Under the pieces are notes generated by a model. It saw nothing but the letters and a program-made list of their open reading frames with translations. It had not been told where the DNA came from and ran no database searches. 64,000 nucleotides of DNA from a virus (taxonomy: Duplodnaviria > Caudoviricetes). A program made the position numbers and the translations under genes. This document shows, piece after piece, positions 6,417 through 64,000 of this stretch. Where the stretch lies: IMG/VR virus record IMGVR_UViG_2627853856_000004, positions 37,277 through 101,276 of that record, one strand, 5' to 3'. Every line of letters begins with the position of its first letter. Positions within the stretch are counted from its first letter, which is position 1.

Positions 6417-7145
6417 ATGGTTCGGATATCAGCACTATGGTGGCGAAATCAGAACCATGCAAGCGAAAGTGAGCAAACATTGTCTATTGGGGCGCGTCTG
6501 AAGGCAGAGCGATTGAGGCTTGGGCTCAGCCAGACCTATTTTGCTCAGATAGCCGGTGCATCAAAGAGTGCTCAGATTAGCTGGGAGAAGGATGAATCGT
6601 CGCCTACCGCGAAGGCATTGGTGTCGTTTCGCGAGGTGGGGGCCGACATCCCGTTTATATTATTTGGCGAACGCCGATCGGGGCAATCGGCGGAAGTCGA
6701 TTCGCATTATGCAGCCAAGGTTCACGAACTAAAGGACCAAGTCGTCAATCCTGGCAAATATATGGCCGATGATGCGCTATCGCAGGCCGCCTCTTTCCAC
6801 ATTGTCCAGCGAGCTGCGGACGCCCTGGGACGCATAGCAACTTCGACCGACCCGCTAATCAGCGATCAAACCAAAGCGCTGGCTGACGATATCCTCCGCA
6901 TTCATTGTAATGACGCAGCTGCGGCAGAGCGGCGGTCTGCCCGGTATGCAGCTGTCGTCGCAGATCGTAATCGTGCGGAGCACGATCTCCGGGATGCGCT
7001 AGGAGGCGTTGGGCTGAAAATTGGTCCTGACTTAAATCAAGCCTTACTGACGTTAATCGTGGATTATCGGATTGATGCTCGGGAGATACTTGGCCTTCTT
7101 CAAGCGTTGAAACTAGAATTAAAGGCTAACGCCGATGCTGCCTGA
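6417..7145 (+). CDS. XRE-family repressor of the Mu-like element
   Basis: IGARLKAERLRLGLSQTYFAQIAG...WEKDESSP; start uncertain. Confidence 0.8.
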   Translation: MVRISALWWRNQNHASESEQTLSIGARLKAERLRLGLSQTYFAQIAGASKSAQISWEKDESSPTAKALVSFREVGADIPFILFGERRSGQSAEVDSHYAAKVHELKDQVVNPGKYMADDALSQAASFHIVQRAADALGRIATSTDPLISDQTKALADDILRIHCNDAAAAERRSARYAAVVADRNRAEHDLRDALGGVGLKIGPDLNQALLTLIVDYRIDAREILGLLQALKLELKANADAA

Positions 7146-20226: not shown

Positions 20227-20414
20227 ACGATCCGGAACGGCAAACGCCCCCGATCGACTGGACCTATAACGCGAACGGCCACACTGGCATGATCCCGCAG
20301 GCGTCTGAAGAAGAGGCGATGGCGCTGATTGATGGCCGGCCAGCTGTGCTGGTCGGCTATTCGTTCGACTTCGACGCCAGGGCCATCAAGTACCGCGCGC
20401 TCTATCTCCCATGA
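20223..20414 (+). CDS. hypothetical protein
   Basis: ATGA overlaps on both sides. Confidence 0.5.
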   Translation: MNDPERQTPPIDWTYNANGHTGMIPQASEEEAMALIDGRPAVLVGYSFDFDARAIKYRALYLP

Positions 20415-21508
20415 TCGAAGGCGTCCACTATGTCCGCAGTGCCAAGCCCGGCAAGCCCGTGCGCTGGTACGTCTATGCGTGGCGCGGCGGCCCCGTCATC
20501 CTGAAGGCTGACGGCCCGACCAAGCCTAAGCTCGGCAGGGCTGAAGTCGCCGCCATCGCGGCAGCGCACGAAGATCAGAAAGCGGTCAAGGCCGACATGC
20601 TCGCCGGCGTCGCCCGCGCATGGCAACGCAGCCCCGAATGGCTGGGCCTTGCCAGTTCGACCCGCACCCTTTGGGGCGGCGAACTGGACCTGATCGAGGC
20701 CAAATGGGGCACGTTACCGATCGGCCTTTGGAACGATTACCGCATGGTCGCCAAGGTGATCGCATGGCGCGACAGCCGCGCCGCCACCCCGCGCGCCGCC
20801 GATCAGGGCGTCAAGGTTCTATCCGAGCTGCTGAAGTTCGCCAAGCTGCGCGCCATGATCAAGATCAACGTCGCCGCCGACGTGCCGGGCATCTATCGCG
20901 CCGCCGATCGCGCGGAGATCATCTGGACGCCTGAAGATCTGGAGAAGGCCGAGGCGGCCGCCATCGCGATCGAGCGGCCGCGCGCGCTGGATATCATCCG
21001 CCTCGCCTGTCTCACCGGTATGCGTCGCGCCGATCTCGCCGCCCTGACATGGGACGAGGTCTCGGATCATGCCATCATCCGCACGGCGCTGAAGCGCAGC
21101 CGGGGCCGCCGGCGGCGCGCAGTCATCCCGATGCACCCCGAACTCGCCAAGCTGCTCGCCGAACTGCGCAAGCTGCCCCGCGCCGAAGGCGTCAATCATG
21201 TGCTGGTCGGCGCGCGCGGACGCCCTTGGAAACCGGAAAGCATCACCGAAGCCGTCATCGCCATCACGAAGGCTGGCGGCATCGCCGAGCCGGCCGTGCC
21301 CGAACTAGACCAGCCGGAACGCCGCAAGCACTTGCACGACTGCCGGGGCACCTTCGTGACGCACCTGTGCCGGGCAGGGCTTACCGACGAAGAGATCGCC
21401 AACATCGCGGCATGGTCGGTCGAAAGCGTCAGCCGAATCCGTCGCACCTATGTTGACGACGCGGCCGTTGTGGTGGCATTGAGCGAACGGATCAGGCGGG
21501 CGTTGTAA
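20411..21508 (+). CDS. int: tyrosine recombinase/integrase
   Basis: TGMRRADL, LHDCRGT and AAWS...RTY catalytic motifs. Confidence 0.92.
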   Translation: MIEGVHYVRSAKPGKPVRWYVYAWRGGPVILKADGPTKPKLGRAEVAAIAAAHEDQKAVKADMLAGVARAWQRSPEWLGLASSTRTLWGGELDLIEAKWGTLPIGLWNDYRMVAKVIAWRDSRAATPRAADQGVKVLSELLKFAKLRAMIKINVAADVPGIYRAADRAEIIWTPEDLEKAEAAAIAIERPRALDIIRLACLTGMRRADLAALTWDEVSDHAIIRTALKRSRGRRRRAVIPMHPELAKLLAELRKLPRAEGVNHVLVGARGRPWKPESITEAVIAITKAGGIAEPAVPELDQPERRKHLHDCRGTFVTHLCRAGLTDEEIANIAAWSVESVSRIRRTYVDDAAVVVALSERIRRAL

Positions 21509-21557: not shown

Positions 21558-21631
21558 GCGGGCGTAGCATAGTGGTAATGCTCTAGCCTTCCAAGCTAGC
21601 TAGGAGGGTTCGATTCCCTTCGCCCGCTCCA
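21558..21631 (+). tRNA. tRNA-Gly(TCC)
   Basis: GCGGGCG/CGCCCGC acceptor stem, CTAGC-CTTCCAA-GCTAG anticodon arm, GGTTCGATT T-loop, TCCA end. Confidence 0.96.
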
Positions 21632-23213
21632 GCAATACAGTACCAGTGTCGATGTTGGGGCTTCCCGCAGCCAGGGCGAGGATGTTCGCCAAGCGGCCTG
21701 TGATCTCGATTTCCACGCCGCGCGGCCCCTCGGCTGGCTTCACCGTGATTCGTTCGATAAGGCTGCGCAGGACCGGCGCGGCTTCCTCCCGGTTGTCTGC
21801 ATCGCCGGTCAGGGTGCGGGCGAGGTCGTCCATCTGGCGGCGATAGTCGTCGATGATTGACGGGTGGAGCGCGACGACGTTGTGGGCCTCGATCTCTCGC
21901 ATGTCCTCGGCAAGGCGGTCGCGATCGGCGCGGGCCTTGCCCAGCGCGGCGCGGATTTCGGCGAAGTCGCTGCCGCCTTCGGCAACGGCGGCAACGAGGC
22001 GGTCGACTTTGCGCGATGCCTCGGCGTGGCGGCGCTCGATTTGTGCGCGATCGCGACGGGCGGCGGTCGCCGCCTCGGCGCTCGCCCGGTGGTATTCGGC
22101 GACGTAGATGCTGACCAGTTCGGGATCGAGCATCTGTTCCTGCAATCCGCCGATCACGCGGGCCTCAAGCCGATCGACGGTGATCATCCGGCTATTGGTG
22201 CAGCCGCCGCCGTCACGTTCACGGCTGCAGCCCATCTTGTGCGCGGTCACGACGCTGTAGCCGCCGCCGCAGATGCCGCAGACTACCAGCCCCGAGAGAA
22301 GCCGCTTGGGCCGGCGATGCAGAACGGGTTTCAGGGTGGCGACGCTTTCGAAGCGATGTGCGACGGCCCGCCATAGCGCCTCGTCGACGATGCGAAGGTG
22401 CGGCACCGGCTCGACAAGCCATTCGCTCTGCGGGTTCGCGCGGATCCGCACCTTGCGGCTCATGGGGTCTGTCACCTTGCTGGTGCGATTGTGGACCAGC
22501 TCGCCCCGATAGAGCCGGTTGATCAGCATCCCGTTGTGCCGGGTTCGATCGCCGTGAATGGTCGAGGCGCGCCATGTGCCGCCACTCGGTCCGGCTATGC
22601 CATCGGCGTTGAGGCGGAGCGCGATCGCGCGAGCGTTCGATCCGTCCGCATATTCGGTGAAGATCCGCCGGACGATCACCGCCTGATCGGGATCTATCTC
22701 GCGCAGGCCGCGAATCACCTCGCCGCGCTCGTCGAAGCGGTTGGCGCGGCGGTAGCCAAAGGCGAGGCCGGCGGGCGCGCGTCCCTGCGCGACCACGCCG
22801 CGCTGGGCGCGCTTGATGTTGAACGCCAGATCCTTGCGCTGCTGCGCGTCGAGGAAGCCTTTGACCCAGCCCTTGATGTCGTCGATCTCGCCGTCGGCGA
22901 GCGTGAACAGCCGGACCTTGGCGCAAGTGAGCTGCTCGCGGATCGAATAGGCGTCGCCCTGGTGCCGCGCTATGCGGCTGGTCGACTCGGCCAGAACCTG
23001 ATCGATGCCGCCGGCGGTGGCGCGCGCCAACATGGCGTTGAGGCCGGGCCGTTGGCTGATGCCGGCCGCGCCGCTGATCGCATAGTCCGTATAGACGTCA
23101 ACGATCTCCCAGCCTTCCGCATGCGCGCGCTCACGGCAAATGCGGATCTGGTCCTCAATCGACCGGGCGTTTTGAAGGTCGCTGCTAAAGCGGGCGTAAA
23201 TCAGGGTGCGCAT
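21600..23213 (-). CDS. large serine recombinase (integrase)
   Basis: IYARFSSDLQ...SRIAR; recombinase domain; LLSGLVVCGICG Zn ribbon; coiled coil. Confidence 0.93.
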   Translation of the reverse strand: MRTLIYARFSSDLQNARSIEDQIRICRERAHAEGWEIVDVYTDYAISGAAGISQRPGLNAMLARATAGGIDQVLAESTSRIARHQGDAYSIREQLTCAKVRLFTLADGEIDDIKGWVKGFLDAQQRKDLAFNIKRAQRGVVAQGRAPAGLAFGYRRANRFDERGEVIRGLREIDPDQAVIVRRIFTEYADGSNARAIALRLNADGIAGPSGGTWRASTIHGDRTRHNGMLINRLYRGELVHNRTSKVTDPMSRKVRIRANPQSEWLVEPVPHLRIVDEALWRAVAHRFESVATLKPVLHRRPKRLLSGLVVCGICGGGYSVVTAHKMGCSRERDGGGCTNSRMITVDRLEARVIGGLQEQMLDPELVSIYVAEYHRASAEAATAARRDRAQIERRHAEASRKVDRLVAAVAEGGSDFAEIRAALGKARADRDRLAEDMREIEAHNVVALHPSIIDDYRRQMDDLARTLTGDADNREEAAPVLRSLIERITVKPAEGPRGVEIEITGRLANILALAAGSPNIDTGTVLLERAKGIEPS

Positions 23214-23316
23214 GCGAATCGGCTTTCTCGGTTCGCGCGCGAGCGTCGCGGCGCGCGGCGGCGCGCGCAAGCGCCTTGGCAAGTTCGACCAGAGCGGGAT
23301 CGGGCTTGCGGCTCAT
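23185..23316 (-). CDS. small protein upstream of the recombinase (possible directionality factor)
   Basis: MSRKPDPALVELAKALARAAARRD; ATGA coupling. Confidence 0.45.
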   Translation of the reverse strand: MSRKPDPALVELAKALARAAARRDARARTEKADSHAHPDLRPL

Positions 23317-37206: not shown

Positions 37207-38832
37207 ATGAACCAGATGATTCCGATCCCGACCGACGACCCGTTGCAGATGGCGTGGTTCGATCGCAACGACCTCGGCAATGCCGAGCGGCTCGTGCGGA
37301 TCGCCGGCCGGCGTCTGTTGTGGGTCGAGGGCATTGGCTGGGTCGCCTATGACGGCAAGCGCTGGTCGGCGCGCGAGGGCGATCGGCGCGCCCGCCAATT
37401 CGCTCATGACGTCGCGCGCCATGTCGATCAGGAGGCGGTGGCGCTCGACAAGATCGCGAACAATGCCTCCGCGCTCAAGGATGCCTTCCCGTGGTTCGCC
37501 GGGATCGACGACGACGAGCTCAAGGCGCTGGTGCAGGAGCGGGTGATATCGCTGCGCAAGCATGCGGTGCAGAGCGGCAACGCCTCGGCCACCAACGCCA
37601 TGCTGTCGCAGGCCAAGACGCTGATCAACGCCGATCGCGAGGAGTTCGACCGCGACGCGCTGGCCTATAACGTCCAGAACGGGACGCTGCGTTTCCTGCT
37701 GTTCGGCGACAAGTGGATCGCTCGTCTCGACGATCATGATCCCGAAGACCGGCTGATGCAGATGGCGAACGTCCGCTACGAGCCCGGGGCGGTCAGCAAG
37801 GAATGGATCGAGCGCATGAAGCTCGTCCAGCCATCGGAGGATCAGCGCGAGCTGCTGCAGCAGGCCTATGGCTATAGTCTGACCGGGCTCACGTCCGAAC
37901 AGAAGTGGTTTCTGTTTCAGGGCAAGGGCGGCGACGGCAAGTCGGCGACCGACGACATTATCTTCGACATTCACGGCGACTATGCGCGCCACGCCGAGAT
38001 CACGACGTTCCTCGCCGGCGCGCAAAAGAGCGGATCGGATCATAGCAGCGACATGGCGCGGCTCGCGGGCGATATCCGCTTCGTGCTGTGCGAGGAGCCG
38101 CCCGAAAATTGCACGTGGAACGGACAGCGGCTCAAGCAGGTGACCGGCAGCATGGTGACGGCCCGGCCGATGCGCGAGGCGGAAATCGAGTTCCGGCCGC
38201 GCTGGAAGCTGTTCGTGGAGGTCAACCCGCTGCCGGCGGTGCCGAACGACGATGACGGCTTCTGGCGACGCGTGGTGCTCATCCCCTGGTCCTTCCAGTT
38301 CGACAAGAAGGGCTCGGTTGCGTCCGAGCCGATGGAGCTGCTCAAGGCGCGGCTGCTCAAAAATGCCAGCGGGATCTTCAATTGGATGGTCGAGGGCACG
38401 CTCAAATGGCTTGAGACGCGCCGCCTGCCGATATCGGCCGCGGCGACCGAGGCGGTCGAGAATTACCGCAGCACGGCCAGCCCGTTCGGCGAATGGCTGA
38501 CCGATCGGTGCGACACGAGCGATCGCGACGCCATGACGCCGTCGGGTGCGCTGTACGAGGATTTCAAAGCGTGGTGCGAGGCATCGAGCATCGAGCCGAT
38601 CAAGCAGGCCAATTTCGGCCGGAAGCTGCGCAACCGCCAGCATCTGGAAAAGAAGGACGGCAAGGGCAAGCGGTTCCGCCGCGGCATACGGCTGCTGGCC
38701 GACGGCGTTGGGGGTGCCCTGGGCGCTGCCGCCGCCACCGCCGGGCCTGCTGCCCCCCAGCCTGTAGAGCATCCTGGGGCGGGTGGTCGGGCGTCGGGCG
38801 GCACGCCCGAAGGCGATTACGACCCCTTCTGA
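37207..38832 (+). CDS. P4/D5-family primase-helicase
   Basis: DLGNAERL, GKGGDGKS, LKQVTG, DDGFWRR, C-terminal winged helix. Confidence 0.92.
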   Translation: MNQMIPIPTDDPLQMAWFDRNDLGNAERLVRIAGRRLLWVEGIGWVAYDGKRWSAREGDRRARQFAHDVARHVDQEAVALDKIANNASALKDAFPWFAGIDDDELKALVQERVISLRKHAVQSGNASATNAMLSQAKTLINADREEFDRDALAYNVQNGTLRFLLFGDKWIARLDDHDPEDRLMQMANVRYEPGAVSKEWIERMKLVQPSEDQRELLQQAYGYSLTGLTSEQKWFLFQGKGGDGKSATDDIIFDIHGDYARHAEITTFLAGAQKSGSDHSSDMARLAGDIRFVLCEEPPENCTWNGQRLKQVTGSMVTARPMREAEIEFRPRWKLFVEVNPLPAVPNDDDGFWRRVVLIPWSFQFDKKGSVASEPMELLKARLLKNASGIFNWMVEGTLKWLETRRLPISAAATEAVENYRSTASPFGEWLTDRCDTSDRDAMTPSGALYEDFKAWCEASSIEPIKQANFGRKLRNRQHLEKKDGKGKRFRRGIRLLADGVGGALGAAAATAGPAAPQPVEHPGAGGRASGGTPEGDYDPF

Positions 38833-52696: not shown

Positions 52697-55179
52697 TGTC
52701 GAAGGTTCTGAAACCCCTTCTGATCGTCGCGGCAGTTGCCGTGGCCTTCATCCCGGGCGTGGGCACGGCGCTCAGTGTTGCCTTATGGACGAGCACCAGC
52801 CTTGGGCTCGCTGCTGCTGCGGCAATACCCGGCCTGATCATTGCCGCAGGAGCAGCTGCGGGCCTGTCGATCGCCAGCAACGCGCTCCTTAAGGTGCCAC
52901 GATCGCCGCTGGGTCAGCTCGACCGATTGAACGCGTCGGTAATACCCGGTGCATATCGTCCGGCGGTGTTCGGCACGACGGCGCTCGCTACCGATATCCG
53001 GTATACCGAGCCATGGGGCGCCGAGCAGGAGTACGTCGATTATATCATCGGCTGCGCGGCGCATAAGGTCACATCGATCGACGAGATCTGGATCGAGGAC
53101 CGCAAGGCATGGTCGGCGACAGGCGGTGTGATTGGCGATTTCGTCGGCTACCTGACCGCGGAGACGCGCCTCGAAGGGACCGCCGCCAACACGATCGCGA
53201 TCAATGGCGGCGGCAAATGGGGTGCGACGCGTCGGCTGACCGGCTGCGCCTATATCCATCTCCGCGTGAAGCGCACGGGTAATACCAAAAAGGCCGAAAG
53301 CCCCTTCGCGGGAGGGCTCGCGTCGCGTCTTACGATCCGCGGCAAAGGCATGGCGCTTTACGATCCGCGGCGCGACAGCACCGCGGGCGGTAGTGGATCC
53401 ATGCGGGCGAATGATCAGTCGACGTGGAGCTTTGCGCCATCGGGAAGCGAGATCGGCAACAATACTGCGTTGCAGATCCTTACTTATTATCTGGGCTGGC
53501 GGATCAACGGCCTGATCTCGGTCGGGTGCGGAATCCCGCCGTCTAAACTAGACATGGCGTCGTTCATCACTGCAGCGAACCTATGCGACGAACTCGTTGC
53601 AAAATCGGCCGGCGGCACGGAGCCGCGCTACCGTTCGGCGGCGGTCGTTACCGAGGGCGACGACCCTTCGGCGGCGATGTCGGCGCTGCTATCGGCCTGC
53701 AATGGGCGCCTCCGCGACAATGACGGCAGGATTACACTGACGATCATGCATAATGATCTGGCGGCGACCGCACTCGACGACGGGCTCGACGACGACGATG
53801 TGCTCGGCCCTTTCCAGTGGGATCCCGACCCCGCGCTCAACGATCAATATAATATAGCGCGGGGCAGGTATATCGATGCATCCGACGCATCGCTCTATCA
53901 GCCGGTCGACTATCCCGAGGTCAGCCTCGCGTCTATCGACGGTTTTGACCGCGTACTGTCGCTGGATCTGCTGACCGTAGAAAGTCCGAGCCAAGTCCAG
54001 CGCATCGCCAAGCAAGTGCTGCAGCGCAAGCAATATGACCGGCGCTTTACGGCGACATTCAGCAACCGGGCTTGGAAATATCAGGTCGGCGATCCCCTGC
54101 CCTTTACGTTCAGCGCCCTGGGGTTCGACCGGGCTCTATTCCGGGTCGAAGCCAAAACGATGAATTACGACGGCACCTGCCCGATGGTGCTGACCTTCGA
54201 GCATGAAGACATCTACGCCTGGGACGCGAGCGACGCGGCCCCGGTCGTCGCGGCGGATCCGACGCTCTACGATCCGCTCAACGATCCCTATATCCTCGGG
54301 ATCGGCGAAGCGCTGGCTGCCGCCATTCAGGCGATCGCCGACGCCGCCAACGCCCAGGACACCGCCGACGGCAAGATCGACACCTATTATCAGACGGCGG
54401 CGCCGACAGGCGCGAGCGAGGGCGATCTCTGGTTCGACACAGACGACACGAACAAGCTCTATGTCCGGCGAAGCGGGGCCTGGGTATTGGCGGCCGATAC
54501 GCGGGTCGCGCTGGCGATCACAAACGCGGCCGGCGCGCAGGCGACCGCAGATGGCAAGGTCACTACCTTCTACACGACGGCGACGCCGACGGCGACCGCG
54601 CTCGGGGACCTTTGGTATAGCAGTTCCACGAACCGGTTGCGGCGCTGGAACGGTTCGACATGGGTCGACGTCGCGACGGTAGGCGCGAACTGGTCCACCA
54701 ATCTTACGAACATCCCGACCGCTATCAGCGATGGACGGGTCGATGCCGGGCTTAATTCGGACGGCACGATCAAAACCGATCGCGTGACGACGCTGTCGGT
54801 GGACGTTGGGGCGCTCGTCGTGCGCGCCGCTGCGCAGCCGGCGGGATCGACGGCCGGCACCGGCGCCAACATCAACGTCTGCACGATAAACGTCTATGTG
54901 CCGATCGACGCGTCGGTCCTGATCACCGCGACCGGGGCACAGAACTACGTTGGAGGCACTCCCGACCACGAACTGGACGTCACGGTCAACGGCGTAGTGC
55001 AGGGCTGGGGCAGCTCGGGCGGAGCGGGCGACTATCAGGCGGTCTGTGCGGCGGGCGCTCTGGTCACTTTGGCCGGCGGCGCGACGCATACGATCCGGGC
55101 GCGATGGCGCGGCGGAGCGGCCCAAATCATTCTCACCGACCTTCTCCTGGCGGTGGACGCAGCAATGAGGAATGGCTGA
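52696..55179 (+). CDS. tail tip/central fibre protein
   Basis: YDPRRDS, FITAANLCDE, DGKIDTYYQ...GDLW repeats. Confidence 0.85.
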   Translation: MSKVLKPLLIVAAVAVAFIPGVGTALSVALWTSTSLGLAAAAAIPGLIIAAGAAAGLSIASNALLKVPRSPLGQLDRLNASVIPGAYRPAVFGTTALATDIRYTEPWGAEQEYVDYIIGCAAHKVTSIDEIWIEDRKAWSATGGVIGDFVGYLTAETRLEGTAANTIAINGGGKWGATRRLTGCAYIHLRVKRTGNTKKAESPFAGGLASRLTIRGKGMALYDPRRDSTAGGSGSMRANDQSTWSFAPSGSEIGNNTALQILTYYLGWRINGLISVGCGIPPSKLDMASFITAANLCDELVAKSAGGTEPRYRSAAVVTEGDDPSAAMSALLSACNGRLRDNDGRITLTIMHNDLAATALDDGLDDDDVLGPFQWDPDPALNDQYNIARGRYIDASDASLYQPVDYPEVSLASIDGFDRVLSLDLLTVESPSQVQRIAKQVLQRKQYDRRFTATFSNRAWKYQVGDPLPFTFSALGFDRALFRVEAKTMNYDGTCPMVLTFEHEDIYAWDASDAAPVVAADPTLYDPLNDPYILGIGEALAAAIQAIADAANAQDTADGKIDTYYQTAAPTGASEGDLWFDTDDTNKLYVRRSGAWVLAADTRVALAITNAAGAQATADGKVTTFYTTATPTATALGDLWYSSSTNRLRRWNGSTWVDVATVGANWSTNLTNIPTAISDGRVDAGLNSDGTIKTDRVTTLSVDVGALVVRAAAQPAGSTAGTGANINVCTINVYVPIDASVLITATGAQNYVGGTPDHELDVTVNGVVQGWGSSGGAGDYQAVCAAGALVTLAGGATHTIRARWRGGAAQIILTDLLLAVDAAMRNG

Positions 55180-61450: not shown

Positions 61451-61935
61451 TGTCGGTCGCGATGAGATGGCTAGGCCCGTACCTGTTCAAGGCGGGCCTT
61501 GTCGTCGCTCTCCTGGTCGGCGCATGGATCTATGTCCAGCGCGTCGACCAGACCGCACGGAGCGAGCAAAAGGCGGCCGACGTCGCCGAGGTGAAGCTCG
61601 CCCGCGAACAGGCGCGCGCCGAGGATCTGGCGCATGCGCGCCGGACTGAGAAGGCGCAGGCCCGAAATACGAAGGACGCCAATGATGCGCTCGTTACCCA
61701 ATTGGCGGACGCTCGCGCTCGCCTCGCTGCTTATCTCCGCCGGGTGCGTCCACAAGCCGATCAAGGTAGCGCCCGAGCGGCGGCTTTGCCCGGCCTTGCC
61801 GACGCCGCCGACTTCGATGACGTCACCTATCAGGGTGCCGTCGTTTCTGTCACCGACCTAGACATCTGCACCGAGAATACCGTGAGGCTGCAGAATGTGC
61901 AGGCATGGGGCGCGAAGTTCGGCGCCGATCAATGA
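61450..61935 (+). CDS. i-spanin (Rz-like)
   Basis: N-terminal TM, coiled coil, C-terminal Cys...LQ..QAW. Confidence 0.7.
   Translation: MSVAMRWLGPYLFKAGLVVALLVGAWIYVQRVDQTARSEQKAADVAEVKLAREQARAEDLAHARRTEKAQARNTKDANDALVTQLADARARLAAYLRRVRPQADQGSARAAALPGLADAADFDDVTYQGAVVSVTDLDICTENTVRLQNVQAWGAKFGADQ
61682..61861 (+). CDS. embedded o-spanin (Rz1-like lipoprotein)
   Basis: +1 frame within the i-spanin; LLISAGC lipobox; Pro-rich. Confidence 0.65.
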   Translation: MMRSLPNWRTLALASLLISAGCVHKPIKVAPERRLCPALPTPPTSMTSPIRVPSFLSPT

Positions 61936-62321
61936 CGGCCCTGGATCTCATTGCGAGCGGCTTCCGCAAGGAAGGCGCTGCGGGTGAGGTTCCGTGCGCT
62001 CGCGGCGGCATCGATCGCCGCGAGTGTTCCCCGGTCGAGTGAAAGATTGACGCGGGTCGCTTTCCCGCTGACCGTCATACGAGGGACAGCGATCAGGAAA
62101 GCACCCGCCGCCAGATCGGCCGATGTCGCTTCCCGAATCGCGCCTACGCCGCTGGCCTCCGGCTCCGCCTGATCCTCAAGCCAAAGCTCCATTGCCTCGA
62201 TTGCGTTCGGCAAGACATCTTCAAGTTCATCCGCTGCCGAGAAACATCCGGGCAGATCGGGAAAGCTGACGCCATAGGCGCTGTCGTCATCCTTATGCAC
62301 GACGGCGTAAAAATACTTCAT
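61929..62321 (-). CDS. hicB: HicB antitoxin
   Basis: YGVSFPDLPGCFSAAD...RVNLSL...TRSAFL. Confidence 0.93.
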   Translation of the reverse strand: MKYFYAVVHKDDDSAYGVSFPDLPGCFSAADELEDVLPNAIEAMELWLEDQAEPEASGVGAIREATSADLAAGAFLIAVPRMTVSGKATRVNLSLDRGTLAAIDAAASARNLTRSAFLAEAARNEIQGRH

Positions 62322-62343
62322 GTCGATCCTCCGAGGGGATGGC

Positions 62344-62526
62344 CTAGAGCCATCCCACTGTCTTTGCGATGCTGCGGGCCGTGCCGATCGGCAAGTCCCG
62401 CTTGGGGTGGGGGACGATCACCGTGACGCTACCCTTGCGGAGCTTGTGGTGCGATCCTTTGACCGACACCAGTTCGAAGCCCTCGTCGGCGAGGCGCTTG
62501 ATGATCTTTTTGCTGTCCCGTTCCAT
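62344..62526 (-). CDS. hicA: HicA toxin
   Basis: KGSHHKL...VPHPKRDLPIGTARSI. Confidence 0.93.
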   Translation of the reverse strand: MERDSKKIIKRLADEGFELVSVKGSHHKLRKGSVTVIVPHPKRDLPIGTARSIAKTVGWL

Positions 62527-62580
62527 GCGCAAATATCTACACATCATCGGGCAAGGTGTCAACTATCGATGCGCAAATAA

Positions 62581-63106: not shown

Positions 63107-64000
63107 ATGGAGTCGAGTCCGCTTTTTGATCTTCCCGAGGTGTGTCGCCCGCGTTTGCAACCGCACGCAAAGCAGGGGCTTGCATGGCCGCGCCTTGCCT
63201 CAATGACGCCGATCGGCGGTGCGGCCGGCGAGGCGGCGGGGTATCTGTTCGATCCTACGCCCGACCTCCTCGGCAATCGCGTCCTGCTGGGTTTCGGCGA
63301 TCAGGAGATGGCCGTCGCGCTGCTCGACCGGCAGATCGCCAACGGGATCATCATCGCCAAGCACTACAGCCATCGCGTCTATTCCGCCTCGACCGAGCAT
63401 TTCGGCGTGTGGATCGACCGTGAGCTCGTCGGCGTGATGCAATATGGTTTTGCGATGAACCCGGCTTCGGCCGACAGCGTCGTCGCCGGCACGCTGATGC
63501 AACAATATCGCGAGCTCAATCGAATGTGGCTGGACGATCGCGCGCCGCGCAACAGTGAGAGCAAGGCTTTGGCCTATTCGATCAGGCTGCTTCGCCGCCT
63601 CGCGCCGCCCGTCAAATGGATCCAGTCATTTGCCGACGAGCGGTGCGGCCTGTTCGGCACCGTCTATCAAGCCGCCGGCTTTACCTTCCACGGCGAACAT
63701 CTGGGCACGTTCTGGGAACTGGACGGCGAGTTCTATCACGACTCGCTGATGACGAACGGCCGGACGGCGAGCGCGCCGCGCGCCGCCTATCTCCGCGCCA
63801 ACGCCAAGCGGGCGATCAAGCACCGCCTCCGCCAGTTTCGCTATCTGCGCTTCCTTCAACAGCGATTTGCCAAGGCGTGCCGCTATCCGGTGCAGCCCTT
63901 TCCAAAACCAGCTTATGCGGCCCGTCTAGACGACGAGCACCCGCCCAGGGTGTGTGAGGACGGTGGGAATCCGTCGGGCCGCTCCACTCCCATGGAGTAA
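63107..64000 (+). CDS. mom: Mom-family adenine DNA hypermodification enzyme
   Basis: KHYS...GVMQYG.AMNP...ELNRMWLDD..PRNSE...WIQSFADERCG..G.VYQA...ELDGE.YH...VQPFPK, collinear with Mu Mom as recalled; start uncertain. Confidence 0.9.
   Translation: MESSPLFDLPEVCRPRLQPHAKQGLAWPRLASMTPIGGAAGEAAGYLFDPTPDLLGNRVLLGFGDQEMAVALLDRQIANGIIIAKHYSHRVYSASTEHFGVWIDRELVGVMQYGFAMNPASADSVVAGTLMQQYRELNRMWLDDRAPRNSESKALAYSIRLLRRLAPPVKWIQSFADERCGLFGTVYQAAGFTFHGEHLGTFWELDGEFYHDSLMTNGRTASAPRAAYLRANAKRAIKHRLRQFRYLRFLQQRFAKACRYPVQPFPKPAYAARLDDEHPPRVCEDGGNPSGRSTPME
63917..63986 (+). ncRNA. non-canonical tRNA-Gly(CCC)-like element
   Basis: 7-bp acceptor stem plus TCCA; 5-bp T-stem with 7-nt loop; 5-bp anticodon stem with 7-nt loop containing CCC; reduced D-arm. 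Confidence 0.7.

Follow-up and report, generated by a model that had tools for sequence, protein, structure and literature searches.

Genes and Mom protein at the locus

A DNA stretch of 64,000 nucleotides (nt) from a virus (Duplodnaviria; Caudoviricetes), positions 37,277 to 101,276 of IMG/VR record IMGVR_UViG_2627853856_000004, raises the question why the gene for a DNA-modifying enzyme should run through a sequence shaped like a transfer RNA (tRNA). At the end of this stretch, hereafter called the window, lies mom, and the last 30 codons of its open reading frame (ORF), those after K267, run through a 70-nt tRNA-Gly-like element. Mom of phage Mu modifies adenine in double-stranded DNA at N6 with glycine taken from Gly-tRNAGly, as described in the text of Silva et al. 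(Nat Commun 2026, PMC13219725); a prediction made earlier from the window sequence alone had named this donor, which is now in print. We propose that the element is a chargeable, non-decoding glycyl carrier for Mom, and assign this reading a probability of roughly 0.6. The same carrier interpretation had been advanced in the original prediction, and the sequence comparisons described here support it.

The features of the locus, in window positions unless stated otherwise, are as follows.

63107-64000, + strand: mom ORF, 297 amino acids counted from the first ATG; stop codon 63998-64000
P0001: database version of the Mom protein, starting at M33 of the ORF, 265 amino acids
Residues 68-267 of the 297-amino-acid ORF: GNAT domain of Mom, Pfam PF25680
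63908-63916, + strand: spacer of three codons (P-A-Y) from the end of the Mom domain (PFPK) to G1 of the element
63917-63986, + strand: tRNA-Gly-like element, 70 nt, defined by sequence, fold, covariance model, covariation and a genome descriptor scan
63917-63923 with 63976-63982, + strand: acceptor stem GCGGCCC/GGGCCGC, 7/7 paired
63924-63934, + strand: short D-like hairpin (11 nt, then GA)
63937-63953, + strand: anticodon-like arm, stem GCACC/GGTGT (first pair G.T), loop CGCCCAG, with CCC at 63944-63946
63954-63958, + strand: variable region GTGAG, 5 nt
63959-63975, + strand: T arm GACGG-TGGGAAT-CCGTC, 5/5 stem
63983, + strand: discriminator U73, followed by an encoded CCA at 63984-63986

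The ORF matched PF25680 with an E-value of 1.4e-63 and 214.7 bits (cut-off 27.1) over profile positions 2-202 of 202, and the Mu Mom chain 8bv8 with an E-value of 8.6e-62. Its identity to Mu Mom was 48.8% (tblastn), and 2656 Mom homologues were obtained. The final residues of the 8bv8 chain, ...VQPYPK, lie opposite residues 261-267 of the query (...VQPFPK), which bears out the earlier statement that Mu Mom ends in VQPYPK. The coordinates also confirm that the element starts about 10 nt after the VQPFPK codons: G1 is placed 9-10 nt after PFPK, and a 10-nt spacing is found in 9 other loci. The Pfam domain ends at K267 of 297, the ORF ends of homologues vary, and the last ~30 codons read through the element, as had been predicted.

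A tRNA-shaped element that gene finders miss

Each structural detail that the original prediction had listed for a 70-nt cloverleaf at this position is present in the sequence. The D region of the window element comprises 13 nt (GTCTAGACGACGA) and is devoid of GG. In ViennaRNA calculations, the three-armed cloverleaf was both the minimum free energy and the centroid structure (-35.4 kcal/mol). The fold energy of the element alone is modest, with z = -2.25 and 6 of 200 shuffles folding equally well.

The genome was also scanned with a descriptor that demanded a GCG start, a fully paired 7/7 acceptor, U73, a T stem of 5 base pairs with a 7-nt loop and a hairpin of 5 base pairs with CC in its loop. 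Over 4.63 Mb and both strands, six places satisfied it; the four that end in CCA are the three real tRNA-Gly genes and the element. The cloverleaf beside mom is not a chance structure.

Standard tRNA finders had been expected to overlook the element, and they did. ARAGORN did not call it in the window, where the genuine tRNA-Gly(UCC) at 21558-21631 is the sole call, nor did it call any copy in 25 loci or in 60 loci including 9 carriers. Rfam gave no tRNA match at E <= 10 for the element, and at the same threshold none of its relatives was accepted as a tRNA.

The protein tail that the reading frame places over the element was compared across the 120 best-matching Mom homologues. In a subset it reads PDYAARPVDE....CEDG..PSGRS, others end after PDYG, and eleven end about 15 residues into the tail; beyond GRS the ORF tails differ. 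AAR is paired with SGRS and AAG with CGRS; in the DNA, the seventh acceptor pair is accordingly C-G in the former case and G-C in the latter. This coupling suggests that the nucleotide sequence rather than the amino acids of the Mom tail is under selection. A protein-coding tail as the cause of the conservation was ruled out, since homologue ORFs stop before, inside or after the element. Judged from coordinates, the element is fused to mom in divergent viral loci, too.

Conservation and covariation of the cloverleaf

Relatives of the element were collected and compared with the aid of a covariance model (R1), which scores the window element at 87.5 bits. They are 68-71 nt long with a stunted D arm. 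In an alignment of 42 distinct copies (A2), partly ascertained by a pattern that fixes the T stem and the 3' acceptor strand, 98.4% of the cells were paired, 8 pairs changed on both sides and 0 of 500 shuffles reached the observed score. A further alignment (A3) contains 26 distinct rows that were found through mom and detected by the model. In A3, which was fitted to the model and hence favours structure, with row lengths differing by at most 3 nt, 97.2% of the cells were paired, as against 36.6-50.4% when the partners were slid by 1-3 columns. Two-sided change was present in 13 of its 22 pairs, and its covariation score was 0.431 compared with 0.112 for shuffles, of which 0 of 500 reached the observed value.

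Compensatory changes are found in all four helices and are strongest in the anticodon-like and T stems. Among distant members entire stems have been swapped, both in the acceptor (GCGACCA/TGGTCGC, GCGGCCG/CGGCCGC, GCGGCCT/AGGCCGC) and in the T arm (CAGGG/CCCTG, CGAGG/CCTCG, GAAGG/CCTTC).

Linkage of the element to mom

The association was determined from both sides. A mom-based scan with one genome per species yielded 27 genome loci, 23 of which have the element (that of L020 was recovered via the model); the four without it are distant homologues of 27-49% identity, one of them with less than 100 nt of flank. From a mom-based scan of viral contigs 80 loci were kept, and R1 matched 26 of these; an independent descriptor recovered precisely the same 26 and no others. 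The element was present at 17 of the 20 viral mom loci with at least 57% identity, the remaining three having only 3-313 nt of flank, and at 9 of the 60 loci of lower identity. Within the host family, R1 matched three of 151 genomes (G000, G020, G089), and the three genomes that hold mom, out of 301, are identical to these. Both other mom-bearing genomes of the family (L004, L005) have the element as well.

Conversely, an element-based search with a 28-nt pattern containing 21 fixed bases returned 16 stretches from viral and 38 from metagenome sequences. The full viral copies found by the pattern, 15 in number, all adjoin mom or a mom remnant, and so do 22 of the 24 evaluable full metagenome copies (26 in total, two with too little upstream sequence). 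A pattern for a second clade, guessed from the protein tails of homologues, had no match in viral contigs; a member of that clade, L113, surfaced via the mom search.

The distance from the element to the end of the Mom domain is 8-975 nt, and both lie on the same strand apart from L015, L017 and L073. In these three loci, the element (6725-6794, 6724-6793 and 2508-2577, respectively) and a hairpin upstream of it are antisense to mom, and 25-26 nt lie between the CCA of the element and the point where the Mom domain ends. Because of its opposite strand, the element must have a promoter of its own there. In L043 and L091, an intact element stands beside only the last 45-66 codons of mom.

On a quick tree of Mom proteins, the element fills a clade of 45 rows (42 with the element and 3 with too little flank; support 99) and is also found in a clade of 6 and on four single branches. 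Its presence requires 6 changes on this tree, compared with 37 for shuffled labels. The other carriers have only mom in common with the window phage while their neighbouring genes differ, and therefore mom and the element move as a module.

Glycine-identity features are kept and decoding features are relaxed

The determinants of the bacterial alpha2beta2 glycyl-tRNA synthetase (GlyRS) are G1-C72, C2-G71, C35, C36, U73, and purine 4 with pyrimidine 69, as far as they are set out in the text of PMC10464925. Most of the identity set in the original prediction stands on this basis, namely G1-C72, C2-G71, U73 and C35/C36; G3-C70, which it had also included, is conserved but is not named there as a determinant. 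In A3, all 26 rows have G1-C72 and 25 of them have C2-G71, and both pairs occur in the window copy. Pair 4-69 is always purine-pyrimidine (GC in 24 and AU in 2 of the 26 rows). Across 56 distinct rows, T73 and the loop CC are invariant, the latter shifted by one base in a single row, and the TCCA end is found in 55. Together with the conserved cloverleaf and the compensatory changes, this is the outcome that the original prediction had anticipated for a comparison of mom loci. The copy ending in TCCT instead of TCCA is L113 2927-2997, a member of the G7-C66 clade. G53-C61 is fixed too, and A58 of the T loop is present in all rows. The host encodes glyQ and glyS, i.e. the alpha2beta2 type of GlyRS, and its three ordinary tRNA-Gly genes have the acceptor GCGGG(C/T)G, U73 and an encoded CCA.

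A canonical elongator tRNA has a D arm with a stem of 3-4 base pairs, a 7-11-nt loop and G18 G19, and its T loop contains T54-Psi55-C56 and A58. The D region of the relatives is an 11-nt hairpin, GTCC-NNN-GGAC, in which GG is kept in most copies. The T loop reads TGGGAAT in the window and TGCGACC or CGCGACC in most copies, with TTCAATC or TTCAACC only in 4 of the 56 distinct rows, all of them distant ones. The anticodon loop of a canonical tRNA-Gly has 7 nt, with U33 and the anticodon NCC. In the anticodon-like loop of the element NCC is retained, but position 34 may be U, C, G or A, and the same four bases occur at position 33, which is G in the window copy. This variability suggests that the loop CC is selected, whereas decoding is not. 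Positions 32 and 38 usually pair (columns 26-33 form a standard pair in 23 of 26 rows), which often leaves a pentaloop, and the loops measure 4-6 nt beyond the closing pair.

Thus, the element is not a canonical elongator tRNA-Gly in its D arm, its T loop or its recognition by gene finders, and the features needed by the ribosome, i.e. the D arm, T54-Psi55-C56, U33 and a fixed position 34, are lost or relaxed. The stronger statement in the original prediction, that the features for translation are lost, needs correction for the family: most relatives keep GG in their short D hairpin and many keep U33.

Expression and processing context

Only 9 nt separate the last codon of the Mom domain from the element, which is why co-transcription with mom is proposed. 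The fused layout has no space for a promoter between the two, and the window element can only arise as part of the mom transcript or from a promoter located within mom. When its surroundings were scanned for promoters and terminators, no promoter was found upstream of it and no terminator after the CCA; a weak promoter-like site is located directly after the element, at L001 2398-2426.

Copies that are not fused to mom carry a conserved hairpin (AGCAGTTGC ... GCAGCTGCT) that ends 2-7 nt before G1. In the 75 nt 5' of unfused elements this hairpin-forming motif, AGCAGTTGCAG ... GCAGCAGCTGCT, occurs for example in L007, L008, L013, L023, L060 and L070, and the sequence TTGCAG lies about 29-31 nt before G1. 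The hairpin versions of L011 and L025 differ in sequence but retain the pairing. After a cut at G1, the hairpin would cap the mom message.

Proposed function and alternative explanations

We propose that the element is the gene for a reduced, non-decoding tRNA-Gly, which in the window would be co-transcribed with mom. Its RNA would be excised in the manner of a tRNA, the host alpha2beta2 GlyRS would load it with glycine, and Mom would take the glycine from it as a private donor for the N6-adenine modification of phage DNA. Mom would prefer this RNA, and EF-Tu and the ribosome would ignore it. We infer the individual steps, i.e. transcription, processing, charging by GlyRS, preference by Mom and exclusion from EF-Tu and the ribosome, from sequence. 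A carrier that can be charged by GlyRS, can be used by Mom and has been freed from the need to fit the ribosome is the simplest account of the conservation pattern. That the tRNA body matters to Mom follows from data on the Mu enzyme: according to the text of Silva et al., Gly-tRNAAla does not work as a donor, while all three E. coli tRNA-Gly isoacceptors do (PMC13219725).

Several points weigh against the proposed carrier. Since all three isoacceptors serve Mu Mom, a private donor is not required, and the host of the window phage has a full tRNA-Gly set. Neither Mu nor JD024 nor PAN70 has the element, which is also missing from a 50-row clade of the Mom tree (49 rows scored as lacking it, 1 with too little flank); Mom enzymes in general can do without the element. 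Full copies without mom exist, too: none is found within 9.8 kb of L059 3176-3245 (- strand) or within 1.1 kb of L092 177-247 (- strand), and eleven loci (L062, L063, L072, L077, L079, L082, L083, L084, L089, L093 and L056) hold only 3' pieces of the element. GlyRS requires the arms and the whole L shape of its substrate, as stated in the text of PMC10464925; a D hairpin of 3-4 base pairs may fail to give this shape, and a pentaloop with a Watson-Crick closing pair may present C35/C36 differently. In fused loci, mom would lose its stop codon through a cut at G1. Finally, the counts of G.U and A.C, 60 and 6, shrink to 12 and 6 when one conserved pair is disregarded, so that the wobble-based evidence for the strand is thin.

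The 3' pieces comprise the T arm, the 3' acceptor strand and CCA, and at times part of the anticodon-like arm. Their 5' break points vary, mom is not nearby, and in L089 two of them stand in tandem at a distance of 1.5 kb. Such pieces resemble scars left by recombination, or else att-like duplications, at a gene with the shape of a tRNA. A Pfam search of their neighbours gave no consistent family; Crp-like, Rha, D12 methylase and PAP2 proteins were among them, as well as one tyrosine integrase 3.3 kb off.

The removal of the stop codon might even be put to use. In an extended version of the proposal, a GlyRS-charged and ribosome-excluded carrier would have co-evolved with one branch of Mom, and the fused transcript would be either translated through or cut. 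The cut mom message, now without a stop, would be tagged and destroyed, which would make the ratio of enzyme to donor self-limiting and act as a brake on a toxic modifier. We regard this extension as speculative and its chance of being right as small. A somewhat smaller chance is given to a regulator or decoy RNA, in which a mimic of tRNA-Gly would bind Mom (or GlyRS) in its uncharged form and restrain the toxic enzyme until late infection, like an RNA antitoxin. Linkage to mom would fit a decoy equally well, the conserved acceptor end could serve the binding of Mom as well as charging, and recognition of the tRNA-Gly body by Mom is described in the text of PMC13219725. The authors of that text speculate, however, that Mom reads mainly the 3' acceptor end, and a ligand of Mom alone would leave unexplained the loop CC and purine 4-pyrimidine 69, GlyRS determinants far from the 3' end (text of PMC10464925). 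The encoded CCA in 55 of 56 copies likewise suggests an end that is meant for charging. It is doubtful, more so than a decoy, that the element acts only in cis on the mom transcript, its tRNA shape recruiting RNase P or 3' trimming (tRNA punctuation) for processing or stability with no carrier role. Such an element would be expected where it is found in nearly all loci, fused to mom or shortly after it on the same strand, and the hairpin 2-7 nt before G1 of unfused copies could protect the 3' end that the mom mRNA would have after the cut. Yet U73, CCA, the loop CC and the acceptor identity pairs would have no explanation, the element is antisense in L015, L017 and L073, and cutting would deprive fused loci of their stop codon.

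A working phage tRNA-Gly, used for translation or as a stand-in for a host tRNA-Gly hit by a defence nuclease, is very unlikely. Phages often carry tRNAs, and the distant members with a canonical T loop (TTCAATC/TTCAACC) also keep a U-UCC-A loop; nevertheless, neither ARAGORN nor Rfam (E <= 10) accepts any copy, the D arm is abnormal, position 33 is unfixed, position 34 takes all four bases and loops measure 4-6 nt beyond the closing pair. A translational role would also give no reason for the linkage to mom. Least probable of all is a site acting at the level of DNA, such as a transposon end, an att core or another recombination site, in which inverted repeats co-vary because one protein binds both arms. 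The similarity between loci stops exactly at ...TCCA, and the partial 3' copies with their varied break points, two of them in tandem in L089, would suit such a site. What speaks against it is that the prophage encodes a serine integrase and no transposase, and that it is bounded by att repeats of its own, which lie beyond the element with a 217-amino-acid ORF in between. There is no second or inverted copy in the window or the genome, the other carriers share only mom and differ in their neighbours, and a cloverleaf of four helices with a conserved G.U pair is not accounted for.

Comparison with known systems

The closest relative of the proposed donor system is that of Mu, whose Mom belongs to the same enzyme family (PF25680) and whose co-substrate is glycine on tRNA-Gly according to the text of PMC13219725. 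Mu draws on host tRNA-Gly and has no element downstream of mom, whereas mom of the window carries its own tRNA-Gly-like gene. The term 'tRNA-like' is absent from the text of Silva et al. (PMC13219725), the supplements of which were outside the search, and no paper linking such an RNA to glycine donation was found, with subscription journals and supplements likewise outside the search.

The non-proteogenic tRNA-Gly isoacceptors of Staphylococcus aureus serve FmhB, FemA and FemB (text of Rietmeyer et al., PMC7826273). As described there, they are reserved for a non-translation transferase, have altered D and T arms and are poorly used by EF-Tu and the ribosome, which is the same logic as proposed here. 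They are, however, full-size cellular tRNAs of a lineage restricted to staphylococci, with peptidoglycan as the acceptor (text of PMC7826273). The element, in contrast, is phage-borne, 68-71 nt long and stunted in its D arm, and its presumed acceptor is DNA adenine, so that the likeness is one of role only.

A 76-bp tRNA-Gly-like 'pseudo-tRNA', located in the initial 150 bp of a mom homologue, has been described in Dehalococcoides ssrA islands, with no function proposed in the text (McMurdie et al. 2011, PMC3146451). It is likewise a conserved tRNA-Gly-like locus embedded in mom, on a mobile element with a serine recombinase. Compared by the description in that text, it differs from the window element in its size (76 bp versus 70 nt) and in its position near the 5' rather than the 3' end of mom.

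Ordinary phage-encoded tRNAs are tRNA-shaped genes on a phage with an encoded CCA, as here. Unlike these, the element is missed by the standard finders, is not built for decoding and is tied to a single enzyme gene.

That Mom takes glycine from a charged tRNA onto DNA was shown only in 2026. If the carrier reading is true, the element would be the second tRNA reserved for a non-ribosomal transferase and the first phage-borne one aimed at DNA. It would provide a defined, natural minimal substrate of 70 nt, consisting of acceptor, U73, CC, T arm and almost no D arm, with which the needs of GlyRS can be probed against those of Mom. It also points to a gap in annotation, in that the element escapes tRNA finders and shows up as a protein tail in the output of gene callers.

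Prophage context

The prophage that carries mom is not Mu-like: it measures 43 kb and encodes a serine integrase, its attachment (att) site is in tRNA-Gly(UCC), and no transposase was present among the 19 distinct prophage ORFs scanned. The features that define it are listed below.

21558-21631, + strand: host tRNA-Gly(UCC), attL (ARAGORN; the host's only tRNA-Gly(UCC))
21600-23282, - strand: large serine recombinase, prophage integrase (Pfam Resolvase, Recombinase, Zn_ribbon_recom; PHROG 95 integrase)
21618-21631: 14-nt att repeat CTTCGCCCGCTCCA, the last 14 nt of tRNA-Gly(UCC); it recurs at L001 3154-3167 as attR
L001 2438-3091: 217-amino-acid ORF between the element and attR, with a hydrophobic N-terminus

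The serine-integrase ORF, in its listed extent, shares 32 nt with the 3' end of the tRNA-Gly gene. The attR copy is located 767-780 nt past the CCA of the element, beyond the end of the window. In 4 genus relatives the site is empty, tRNA-Gly(UCC) adjoining the host gene that here follows the attR repeat; the att repeats and the empty site together give a prophage of about 43 kb. Its gene order is serine recombinase, CI/S24 repressor, beta clamp, primases, D12-type methylase, large terminase, tail and lysis genes, HicAB and mom. The 217-amino-acid ORF had no Pfam match and was not found in the genus relatives.

Various DNA-level identities of the element were tried and rejected. A transposon right end (...CA) had been suspected since the similarity between loci stops at TCCA, and no inverted copy was found at up to 3 mismatches in 20 nt or by local alignment; a 10-nt match at 55114 falls inside a tail gene. 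The element, which lies in the interior of the prophage, is not an att site, as the true att repeats correspond to the final 14 nt of tRNA-Gly(UCC), and it is not a host repeat element, being a single copy in the genome. The transposon-end and att readings fail because the prophage is of the serine-integrase type and not Mu-like, is inserted in tRNA-Gly(UCC) and has the element inside.

A phage whose Mom needs Gly-tRNA is thus integrated in a tRNA-Gly gene, which is perhaps a coincidence. A tyrosine-integrase gene (Pfam Phage_integrase) at 20411-21508 stops 50 nt short of the 5' end of tRNA-Gly, outside the repeats of the mom prophage, and a second island may account for the minus-strand genes at about 8.5-20 kb. 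ARAGORN reported one 'tRNA-Stop' among the 45 tRNAs of G000. Just upstream of mom, at 61929-62562 (- strand), lies a pair of HicB-like (130 amino acids) and HicA-like (72 amino acids) genes, named by eye from the translation, and a HicB-like gene is also located near the element without mom in L059.

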